64,000 nt of DNA from a virus (lineage: Duplodnaviria; Heunggongvirae; Uroviricota; Caudoviricetes). Made by a program: the position numbers. Shown piece after piece: positions 12,001 through 15,000 of this stretch. The DNA lies in IMG/VR virus record IMGVR_UViG_2531839664_000027. One strand, written 5' to 3'. How positions within the stretch are numbered: the stretch's first letter is position 1; every line of letters starts with the position of its first letter.

Positions 12001-15000
12001 TGGCGTCAGTTGTTACGGGAAGGTATCAGAGTGGCCAGATGCACTGTGGCACGTCTCATGGCAGTTATGGGACTTACCGGTGTTCTCCGGGGTAAAAAGG
12101 TCCGCACTACCGTCAGCCGGAAAGCCGTTGCCGCAGGCGACCGCGTAAACCGTCAGTTCGTGGCAGAACGTCCAGACCAGTTGTGGGTGGCTGATTTTAC
12201 CTGGGTAAGCACATGGCAGGGCTTCGTTTATGTGGCGTTCATCATTGATGTGTTCGCCGGATACATCGTGGGATGGCGGGTCTCATCATCCATGGAAACG
12301 GCATTCGTGCTGGATGCACTGGAGCAGGCGTTGTGGGCCCGTCGGCCGTCCGGCACAATCCACCACAGTGATAAAGGTTCTCAGTATGTATCGCTGGCCT
12401 ACACGCAGCGGCTTAAGGAAGCCGGCTTACTGGCATCAACAGGGAGTACTGGTGACTCGTATGACAACGCGATGGCGGAGAGCATCAATGGCCTTTACAA
12501 AGCGGAGGTAATACACCGTAAGCGCTGGAAAAACCGTGCAGAAGTGGAACTGGCCACACTAACGTGGGTGGACTGGTATAACAATCGACGATTGCTGGGA
12601 AGGCTGGGCCATACTCCTCCGGCAGAAGCAGAAAAAGCTTATTATGCTTCCATCGGAAACAATGATCTGGCAGCCTGAGTTCACAGATAAAACACTCTCC
12701 AGGAAACCCGGGGCGGTTCATTCTTTAACTTTGTTACTTCTTCAAGTTCAGTGAACACCCCGGACTTAATTAAAGCGTTACGAGCGATTTCCTCTTTCAT
12801 TCTCGTAGTTAAGCGGATTGATGACATATTAATTCCTCTCAAATAAGTGGTTTGCTGCCTAATTTCATTTTCTGGCGACCAACACAAGTCACCCCCATTT
12901 CACTGCGTGGCTTGCGGTAGTAAATACGGTTCTGTTTACGCTCGACCTCTTCTGACTTTGACTTCTTGCAGCGAAGGCTTCCGAGTGATATTGCTTTTTC
13001 AGAAAGGCTTAAACGCTTTCTCGGGGTTTCCTGAACAGCTTCCTCACTGTCTGTGCCGAAGATCGAATCGATGATGTTGCAGATGGAATCACGCTCGATA
13101 GCCAGCTTTCTGCGCCGCTCATGACGGCGAGTTTTGGCATTTCCTGCAAATGTTGATTTGCCGTACACGATTACCGTCATGATATTTTCCTCATGTGAAA
13201 TGGCTTTGGTGGTGATGCGCCAGATGCTGATCTTCTGGTTGCTGTCGTTGCAGCAGCAATTCACATCACCGCCAAACCCATCTCGTTTGGTATCTGTTTG
13301 CGCTTTGTCAGCGCCCCATCGAAGTTAAAGAGCCTGCCAATCTTTTCCGTTTGGCTTCCAGCGTCCTGCTGATGTGGCAATAATGAACCAATAGTTCGAT
13401 ATTATCAAGAACTATTGGTACGAATTTTTGTGATTTATTAACTCTGCGAAGTATGATTTTGATATATAAGGAAATTTATTTTTGTAAATGTGGCTGATGA
13501 AGGTTATGCGGCAGGGATCAGAACTGCATGGTTTAGCTAGTTACATCAATAAATACAAATGGTTATGTGTTTTTAGGTGGGCGAACGCGAGGCAAAGAAA
13601 ACCCGGCTCGGTGGCCGGGTTGATGGGATTATCGTTTATTTCTTTGATGTTTCTTTGCAGACTCAGCTTGAGTGTTTCCATACCTGCGTTTACCGCTATT
13701 GTTTTTTCCTCTAGGCTTGCCTTTTTTTCGATCTTCCCACCAGTCAGGTGCCGGGTCTGGCTCAACATGTAAAGCATCGGCAAGTCCTGATATCAAGCTG
13801 TATGACTGAACTCCATCAATGTGCTCTGACAGTGATGGGGTAACATTCTGTCTTAGTGGATCAAGAATAAAATCAATACCTTTAATTCTGGCGTGTTTGG
13901 CGGCAGGCACAAAGTCTGAGTCCCCAGCAACAAGGACAATTACATCAACAAGTTTTTCATAAGCTAAAGTCGTGATATCCATCCCTAGCTTGATATCAAC
14001 TTGTTTTTGTTTGATGTCATAGTAAAAATCATCATTTGTCAGTTCATCCCATTTTTTCGTTCCTTTCATCAGAGCATCAAGGGAGAATGTAGTTAGTTGC
14101 CATCGCTTATTATCAACAAGATTCCCTAATCTTAAGGCTGTTTTTCGAGTTTTTCTTAACTCTTCATGCAGCTCCGTTCTCAGAATATATGATTTTTCGA
14201 GTTTGAAATTCTTGCGACCAGGCGTCTTATTGCCAGGCTCAGGAAGTGGAAGGCGTGTTTGAATGTCGAGTGGTGGACAGTCATAGAAGTAAATTCTATA
14301 AAGCTCAAGCGGTTCCCTACGTTCTTGTGATTGACGTTTTCCATTAAGATGGGAAAGAACCATTGACCATATTACTTTCATTATGCATTGCGCAGTCAGT
14401 TCATGCTCGGCGAAGTGTTTACGATGCGTAGCATGAACACGCTGCATGAAAAAACCCGCATCAATTAAAATTGCTGCTTTCTTCATAAGAGTCCCAAAAA
14501 AATAGCCCAGAGCCGTTATGCAGATATTAACAATTGTCTGCGAACGGGGCTGGGCTTGGTTTAATTAATCTATGCCAAGTTGACTGTGCCGTCAACATAA
14601 AACTTACTTCCTATCACCCAAACGTCTCTTCACTCATCCGAAGAAGCAGCAATCCGGGTCAGCACGCACAAGCTCAAGCGCATCAGTCAGCGAAAGTTCA
14701 GTACTGTACTGATGCCATTTCATATCCTTCCGCATCCAATAGATTTTCCATCTATCCAGAGAACGTATGTACTTGATTCTTGCTGATGGCAGGATGTTTG
14801 TTTCACCTGGATTGCCCTGCCACACGGGGCGCTGTTCGCCGATATCTATCGTTTGGTCATTGATGCTATAAACAATATCCAGTTCATTGCGGATATGTTC
14901 AGGCGGCCTTATGCTTTCAATGAATTGGTGAACTTCTTTTTTGACCGCTTGATATTCAAGGTCAGTGAACGCCATCTATCCTCCTCACCCAAACGTTTCT

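Follow-up and report, generated by a model that had tools for sequence, protein, structure and literature searches.

NYN-domain and DUF3024 genes in the cI-to-N slot of a Stx2a-type prophage, and a conserved leader hairpin of the NYN gene

The slot between a prophage repressor gene and N is occupied by RexAB in lambda and by BstA in BTP1, and it has been described as a hotspot of mosaic diversity beside a lysogenic promoter that ranks among the most active (PMC8585504). In a 64,000-nucleotide (nt) stretch of DNA from a virus of the class Caudoviricetes (IMG/VR record IMGVR_UViG_2531839664_000027; hereafter "the window"), this slot contains two open reading frames (ORFs) on the minus strand, which encode a 113-amino-acid (aa) protein of the DUF3024 family and a 285-aa predicted ribonuclease with an NYN domain. 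Do these genes form one anti-phage cassette, as was proposed in a preliminary description of the sequence, or are they separate occupants of the slot, and how might the nuclease gene be controlled? The comparative data indicate that the two genes are independent accessory modules, and neither a cassette nor a toxin/partner pair. The explanation that we favour, with moderate confidence, is that these modules are stacked in the repressor-to-N slot and that the NYN module combines leader-gated expression, RNA recognition, and a role in defence.

Separability of the DUF3024 and NYN genes

The gene order on the minus strand is cI, the DUF3024 gene (14634-14975), the NYN gene (13629-14486), the pL/nutL region, and N. 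The adjacency of DUF3024 and NYN, on which the idea of a two-gene cassette was based, was found in a single Stx2a phage lineage and in 9 of 5426 complete Escherichia coli genomes, and the two genes otherwise occur apart. A NYN module of near full length is present in 74 of the 5426 genomes. NYN directly follows cI, with DUF3024 absent, in two lambda-like phages (2B8 and ev099) and in a P22-like phage (E212); the 147-nt region 5′ of NYN is identical between the window and these three phages. The natural occurrence of NYN without DUF3024 in 2B8 and E212 implies that NYN is tolerated and active alone. NYN also stands alone in every distant context examined, with no conserved neighbouring protein.

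The same separability is seen from the side of DUF3024. This gene was detected in 144 phage records and lies directly after the repressor gene in each one examined, followed by variable cargo: a 153-aa gene, the Stk kinase gene, and a small ORF in 933W, F451, and phi24B-type phages, a 177-aa gene in SH2026Stx1, and a gene for a ParA-like ATPase in Salmonella phage SE1. Chromosomal homologues in Erwinia, Yersinia, and Kluyvera follow the same pattern with still other neighbour genes. Comparison of the cargo across Stx and other phages, which had been suggested as a check of the cassette, thus showed that the pair is not maintained.

The DUF3024 gene is flanked on both sides by an 18-nt linker, TCACCCAAACGT(C/T)TCTTC on the plus strand. 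The two copies are direct repeats with 94% identity; one is located at the cI/DUF3024 junction (14985-15002), where it carries the ribosome-binding region of the DUF3024 gene, and the other at the junction with the NYN module (14614-14631). The same linker is found in 2B8 at the junction of cI and the NYN leader, and 3′ of DUF3024 in 933W and SE1. As judged from these sequences, the repeats are the footprint of cassette exchange via recombination at a short shared sequence. In addition, the 147-nt spacer between DUF3024 and NYN contains a predicted promoter and an intrinsic terminator. As one terminator lies between the genes, the statement that the cassette is bracketed by terminators is true of the NYN gene but not of the pair. 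Type II toxin-antitoxin pairs are characterized by conserved adjacency and by tightly coupled or overlapping genes in one operon, and neither feature was found here. A role of DUF3024 as a protein antitoxin of NYN was rejected in view of co-occurrence, spacing, and the linker repeats.

The leader of the NYN gene and its conservation

Upstream of the NYN gene, a predicted sigma-70 promoter (14567-14596, minus strand; -35 TTGACG at 14595-14590, -10 TAGATT at 14572-14567, 17-nt spacer) is followed by a 53-nt hairpin of 17 pairs in three helices (14504-14556), one A, a U7 tract (14496-14502), GGGA as a weak ribosome-binding site (14495-14492), and the ATG of NYN at 14486. The hairpin and U7 tract were as previously described, except that nine rather than eight nucleotides separate the latter from the start codon. 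Two regions of the minus strand have the layout of an intrinsic terminator: the leader itself, with its 17-pair hairpin, A, and U7 (14556-14496), and a segment 3′ of NYN with an 8-bp stem (six GC pairs) and a U-rich tail (13621-13600), which would end both the NYN module and the lysogenic operon, just ahead of the pL/nutL region. By its structure, the leader hairpin would be a terminator, and in the window it is also the predicted end of the cI-DUF3024 transcript.

Leaders of distant homologues, compared over the 200 nt 5′ of the start codon, share a common plan: a TTGAC -35 element is separated by 17 nt from a -10-like hexamer, after which come, at a distance of about 7 nt, a three-tier hairpin of ~53 nt, a run of U5-U8, and a short ribosome-binding site of the GGA type before the ATG. 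In 25 leaders from distant genera (22 type-A and three Proteus-type), the promoter stands at a constant distance from the hairpin, and the transcript is therefore predicted to start at the hairpin base. The TTGAC of distant leaders often lies within a TTGAC-N6-8-GTCAA palindrome. In the window, a palindrome of this kind (GTTGAC-N6-GTCAAC, 14596-14579) overlaps the -35 element, and it is also present at loci L004, L015, L026, L027, L149, and L171; widespread among the lineages but missing from some, it resembles an operator of a dimeric regulator.

The hairpin is conserved along with NYN across Gammaproteobacteria, and it was examined for covariation in a set of 22 distinct sequences from Escherichia, Tatumella, Yersinia, Photorhabdus, Ewingella, Edwardsiella, Acinetobacter, Pseudomonas, Halomonas, Pasteurella, and uncultured sources. 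In this alignment 95.4% of the cells are paired, and compensatory changes on both sides were found in 15 of the 17 pairs. None of 500 column-shuffled controls was as good as the observed alignment, and pairing was just 25-41% when the partners were moved by one to three columns. RNAalifold independently recovered the same helices, in which G-U pairs are found on the sense strand. Despite the both-sided changes in the stems, the unpaired bases A23, T24, T27, T28, and A29 of AAUUGUUAA are invariant or nearly so.

A covariance model of the hairpin (R1) identified a single significant site in the window (75 bits, E = 1e-19), the antisense of which scored 24 bits. When applied to 184 loci (1.13 Mb), R1 gave about 100 sense matches, one per long-form NYN locus and none elsewhere, all of them ending 15-50 nt before the NYN ATG; these loci had been gathered via the NYN protein or the hairpin itself, and exclusivity on a wider scale rests on a pattern scan of viral contigs. 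In that scan, an exact degenerate pattern of the hairpin core was found in 57 contigs, and the next feature was a NYN sequence in 56 of them (44 full, 12 partial because of a locus end or a deletion), with a single contig lacking NYN. No Rfam 15 family matched the leader at E <= 1, either in the window (12600-16200) or in 11 homologous loci, and no such NYN leader is described in the searchable libraries and literature.

Other subfamilies of the protein have other hairpins. Short-form NYN genes (~215-230 aa; Burkholderiales, Acidobacteria, Elusimicrobia, and other Gammaproteobacteria) are preceded by a related type-B hairpin, in which the internal loop CAGUA(A/C)G...CCGA(N)CC is invariant. In an alignment fitted to the model, pairing in the outer helix reaches 94.6%, and five of its eight pairs show compensatory changes; MAFFT was too poor for the inner helix, and the covariance-model alignment used instead leans towards the model. 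In Bacteroidales and a Lachnoclostridium, a third form was recognized by eye, which has an additional nested stem and CUUGAUAAUG as its loop. At loci L041-L083 (Rhodanobacter, Dyella, Frateuria), a -10-like TAGAAT precedes a simple GC-rich stem-loop with a CCCAUCC-type loop, also as judged by eye. The type of hairpin thus changes along with the NYN protein subfamily. Since the leader is also present at loci without a co-oriented upstream gene, the comparative evidence indicates that the hairpin is part of the NYN module and travels along with it.

Three mechanisms that were considered for the leader were rejected. An attenuator with a competing antiterminator does not agree with the predicted transcript start at the hairpin base, which leaves no preceding RNA for a competing structure. 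N-dependent antitermination of the leader was discarded because the sole boxB in the window is that of nutL. Finally, an integron attC-like or other DNA-level hairpin is unlikely, given that G-U pairs occur on the sense strand only and that the sense score of R1 far exceeds its antisense score.

The NYN protein and its possible roles

The 285-aa protein matches the Pfam family NYN (PF01936) with 36.8 bits (cut-off 24.2; E = 6.8e-9), in agreement with its earlier designation as a NYN-type RNase. The match is limited to residues 158-205 because an insertion splits the domain; the NYN core comprises residues 1-250, including this insertion of ~90 residues, and both the structure model and the fold matches indicate a NYN/PIN-like fold. 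Residues D9, D69, D164, D170, D189, and D191 are invariant in 40 homologues (41-86% identity to the window protein), which also have in common a PxWW motif near residue 247. Beyond this motif the tail is variable and is basic in some lineages only; in the window protein, it has 14 lysines or arginines among the last 35 residues. As read from the sequence, the acidic active site is intact and the protein is a predicted ribonuclease. All the features that had been listed for this interval were therefore present: the two ORFs, the basic tail, the hairpin with its U7 tract, and the downstream terminator.

Matches to other collections were few. The NCBIfam model TIGR00288 scored 29.6 bits, far under its cut-off of 178 bits. 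The PADLOC search recommended earlier assigned the 113-aa protein over its full length to PDC-S43, but for NYN it gave weak partial matches only (HEC-09, E = 2e-4; "NYN", E = 1.4e-3), each covering ~45 residues around GDSDF. Sequence searches against solved structures returned nothing significant for the NYN or the DUF3024 protein. Neither of them has a Pfam or PADLOC match to RexA or RexB, with which they share only the position. In the libraries searched, no described entry corresponds to the NYN family or its leader, and to this extent the suggestion that the locus is not a described system stands; DUF3024, however, is already listed as a PADLOC candidate. In E. coli genomes with 100% DNA identity to the window, RefSeq/PGAP cuts the intact 285-codon NYN ORF (locus L021, 3080-3937) into a 146-aa coding sequence and a pseudogene fragment, and protein-based defence finders are therefore likely to overlook NYN.

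The family is widespread. A word-indexed search returned 7035 NYN homologues from Gammaproteobacteria and beyond, and pattern scans of species-representative genomes and of viral contigs detected at least 589 and at least 576 loci, respectively. The gene adjoins an integrase at a prophage end in Pseudomonas syringae and Halomonas, lies between a Q-like antiterminator and a holin, on the opposite strand, in Edwardsiella, and is found near toxin-antitoxin genes in Pantoea. Its GC content in the window is 40.8%, vs. 49.5% for the window as a whole. By its low GC and its lone accessory positions, NYN fits the description of a stand-alone accessory gene carried by temperate phages. In about 200 O157:H7 genomes, only the leader and the first ~129 codons of NYN are present, in the decayed Sp1/CP-933H prophage beside a cI-like repressor gene (for example near thrW in E. 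coli EDL933, locus L022, 2959-3494, and in Sp1 of strain Sakai). The promoter and hairpin are intact in these remnants, so the short RNA may still be made.

On the explanation that we favour, module 1 consists of the DUF3024 gene, presumably read with cI from the repressor promoter and swappable through recombination at the 18-nt linker. Module 2 is self-contained and comprises the predicted sigma-70 promoter, the hairpin-U7 terminator, the weak ribosome-binding site, NYN, and the second terminator. The sequence comparisons establish this anatomy, the independence of the two genes, the conservation of the hairpin together with NYN across genera, and the intact NYN active site. Because the hairpin stands at the extreme 5′ end, with no competing upstream RNA, termination is expected as the default; most transcripts, from the module's own promoter as well as from the cI operon, would stop at the leader, and the products would be mostly a hairpin RNA of ~60 nt and little NYN mRNA. 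We infer from this layout that the hairpin gates NYN expression. It had previously been viewed as insulating NYN from the cI operon, but its co-inheritance with NYN shows it to be more than that.

The conserved loop and bulge bases, together with a hairpin type that tracks the protein subfamily, point to specific recognition, and NYN is the likely recognizer since it is the only constant partner. The nearly invariant bases would then be the recognition site, and the hairpin is probably recognized by NYN itself. Such recognition would result in negative autoregulation or in neutralization of the enzyme by an antitoxin-like RNA. Autoregulation via leader hairpins is known for the genes of RNase III, RNase E, and PNPase, and Regnase-1, a NYN enzyme, recognizes stem-loops, including one in its own mRNA, and is subject to negative autoregulation. 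In lysogens, NYN would act as an RNA-cleaving effector against superinfecting phages, like other occupants of the slot, a defence role that we infer from the genomic context.

Comparison with these other occupants shows both shared and distinct features. RexAB, Stk of 933W, and BstA-aba of BTP1 share the slot and, in lysogens, are expressed either from the repressor operon or next to it; stk is expressed from pRM in stable lysogens (PMC3430580). Stk also matches the validated defence family PD-T4-6 (E = 1e-37). BstA activity is controlled by a short element in cis, located where the bstA gene has its 5′ end (PMC8585504), and NYN likewise has a 5′ element; however, aba is DNA-based, whereas the NYN element is an RNA-type hairpin and terminator with G-U pairs on the sense strand. 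None of RexA/B, Stk, and BstA is related in sequence to the cargo of the window, where the effector would be a predicted NYN ribonuclease. Outside the slot, DS-3 and DS-5 (DefensePredictor) and HEC-03 and HEC-09 (PADLOC) are also predicted metal-dependent PIN-like RNases used or proposed in defence. Among them, DS-3 (WP_022645725.1, 340 aa) is comparable to NYN in being a single protein that has a split PIN domain and lacks an antitoxin, although by inspection, unaligned, the two proteins have no evident similarity. Regnase-1 and Rae1 are NYN-domain RNases. MARF1 and the LabA-like VPA0982 share the catalytic fold and acidic residues with the window protein at 15-18% identity; unlike them, the window family has the ~90-residue insertion and the C-terminal PxWW motif with a basic tail, and it is prophage-borne.

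Several observations weigh against a leader-controlled defence module. Two NYN-domain candidates gave no protection when tested, namely HEC-09, whose relation to the window NYN is weak, and the 215-aa "NYND" (WP_001399740.1), which has no established relation to it. In Proteus, the homologue is a resident-looking chromosomal gene adjoining glmS, a conservation that could reflect a housekeeping role in some lineages. Short-form NYN loci of Rhodanobacteraceae lack the full hairpin and have, by eye, only an apparent apical stem-loop; contig L231 (3563-3620) carries the identical 53-nt hairpin and a U run before a tRNA gene in a phage late region; and a stable hairpin with U7 would to some degree be conserved just as a terminator. 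The screen results and the stable Proteus gene, along with the general theme of RNase genes that have regulatory leader hairpins, support the view that NYN is not a defence gene but processes RNA for the prophage or host, for instance by adjusting phage or host transcripts during lysogeny or induction, with the hairpin as an autoregulatory leader. This view has to accommodate the patchy distribution of the module among complete E. coli genomes, its low GC, its several different prophage accessory positions, the location in the window in the slot of RexAB, Stk, and BstA, and the large number of viral-contig loci; we consider it rather unlikely, although less so than the remaining alternatives. 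Somewhat less probable still is a type III-like toxin-antitoxin or abortive-infection mechanism, in which the abundant terminated hairpin RNA would bind and neutralize NYN until an infecting phage stops host transcription, whereupon decay of this RNA would free the RNase to degrade RNA. The order of promoter (predicted here), structured RNA, terminator, and endoribonuclease, with no protein antitoxin, is that of ToxIN, CptIN, and TenpIN; for ToxIN, this gene layout was reportedly described by Fineran et al. in 2009. The nearly invariant loop bases, the co-variation of hairpin type and protein subfamily, and the use of the slot by abortive-infection systems also agree with it. However, ToxIN-type RNAs consist of tandem repeats, whereas the NYN leader is a single hairpin and Tandem Repeats Finder detected no arrays in 13500-15100. 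Moreover, the fold is NYN/PIN-like and not that of ToxN/AbiQ, no PADLOC match to ToxN, AbiQ, CptN, or TenpN was obtained, the literature search found no link between NYN and type III systems, and the layout is equally compatible with simple attenuation or autoregulation. It is a tentative idea, and in our estimate an improbable one, that NYN and its 5′ hairpin constitute a new RNA-protein toxin-antitoxin or abortive-infection module, with a single hairpin and a NYN RNase, in temperate phages of several bacterial phyla, the hairpin perhaps being a prophage self-immunity element.

Two further alternatives concern the relation of NYN to the genes upstream of it. If the hairpin were a mere terminator of the cI operon, the counterpart of the lambda terminator after rexB and without any link to NYN, its strong stem and U7 directly 3′ of the cI-DUF3024 unit would be explained, as would the copy before a tRNA gene. 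This reading appears to be largely refuted already by the comparative data, as the hairpin accompanies NYN where no co-oriented gene lies upstream, a promoter is present at a fixed distance, and the loop bases hardly vary among genera whose stems have changed on both sides; we consider it very improbable. The least probable reading of all is that DUF3024 and NYN are one two-gene exclusion system, either toxin/antitoxin or sensor/effector. The genes are adjacent and co-oriented in the window, and DUF3024 always heads a variable gene cluster, which could fit a common adaptor with variable effectors. Nevertheless, the adjacency is confined to a single phage lineage, NYN has no conserved protein partner in the other contexts examined, a predicted promoter and terminator lie between the genes, the linker repeats mark DUF3024 as a separately inserted cassette, and DUF3024 has no match to DNA-binding or antitoxin families.

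Both protein families were already annotated (NYN domain-containing; DUF3024/PDC-S43), and the slot is known to carry exclusion genes. What appears to be new is that the pair is not a system, that the cargo has a linker-mediated cassette structure, and, above all, that a promoter-hairpin-terminator leader is tied to NYN. The NYN family is large, with 7000 or more homologues and members in hundreds of viral contigs, and its conserved structured leader is missing from the libraries searched. If the RNA controls or neutralizes the enzyme, the leader would represent a widespread RNA-level RNase switch and a compact part for the gating of toxic genes; the whole NYN module is ~1 kb long and directly testable. 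For the biology of Shiga-toxin phages, the locus indicates that immunity-region cargo is exchanged through short linker repeats.

The DUF3024 gene and the surrounding locus

The 113-aa protein, previously thought to be of unknown family, is a full-length member of DUF3024 (Pfam, E = 2.4e-31, residues 4-113 of 113) and of the PADLOC candidate PDC-S43 (E = 7.2e-42, residues 1-113). PDC-S43 is one of 145 PADLOC candidates that were identified inside BREX, DISARM, or type I restriction-modification loci; the present gene shares full-length family membership but is located in a prophage immunity operon. The structure model (pLDDT 88) consists of a helix, a five-strand antiparallel sheet, and a second helix, and the invariant positions are an N-terminal MAF.D.E, a Trp/Tyr-rich strand region (W76, Y79, W80, R82, W87), and a C-terminal CF. 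A literature search for DUF3024 gave no matches. The gene has a strong ribosome-binding site, GAGGAGG, starts 60 nt after cI, and has no promoter of its own; it is therefore expected to be made with the repressor in lysogens. Our best guess, which is weakly supported, is that DUF3024 is a non-enzymatic binding protein with its own function in lysogens, possibly exclusion or protection. In Erwinia aphidicola (locus L242, 5001-7130), a 933W-like block of DUF3024, 153-aa gene, Stk gene, and small ORF is present without an adjoining repressor gene, and in this lineage DUF3024 may travel together with the kinase genes.

The interval that contains both modules shares 100% identity with a set of Stx2a-converting phages, namely LC616031 and its relatives, and with the chromosome of strain RM8352 of E. 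coli O121. The cI repressor gene (15036-15743, minus strand; Pfam Peptidase_S24 and HTH_3) is labelled a LexA family transcriptional regulator in RefSeq and heads the lysogenic operon that reads into both cargo modules. On the other side, the nutL boxB (13300-13314, minus strand), an exact P22-type match, is where the pL-N early-left operon begins and hence delimits the cargo slot on the left; it is followed by N (12839-13264, minus strand; Pfam N_peptide). Because both ORFs lie between cI and N, the slot corresponds to that of rexAB in lambda, as had been stated at the outset. This slot has repeatedly proved to encode anti-phage systems (RexAB, Stk/PD-T4-6, BstA); the two genes described here are further occupants, and by analogy of genomic position an anti-phage activity of DUF3024 or NYN is plausible.

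The rightward genes begin at 15822 with cro and continue with cII, an O-like gene, and a gene for a DnaB-type helicase. Just downstream of N, an IS3-family element (11465-12678, plus strand; orfA/orfB with a programmed frameshift) disrupts a gene annotated as "Nmad5 family nucleotide modification". The 797-aa replicative helicase (17697-20090, plus strand) contains an intein with a LAGLIDADG homing endonuclease; the ORF matches Pfam DnaB, a split DnaB_C, and LAGLIDADG_3, and is annotated in RefSeq as pseudogene fragments in RM8352.

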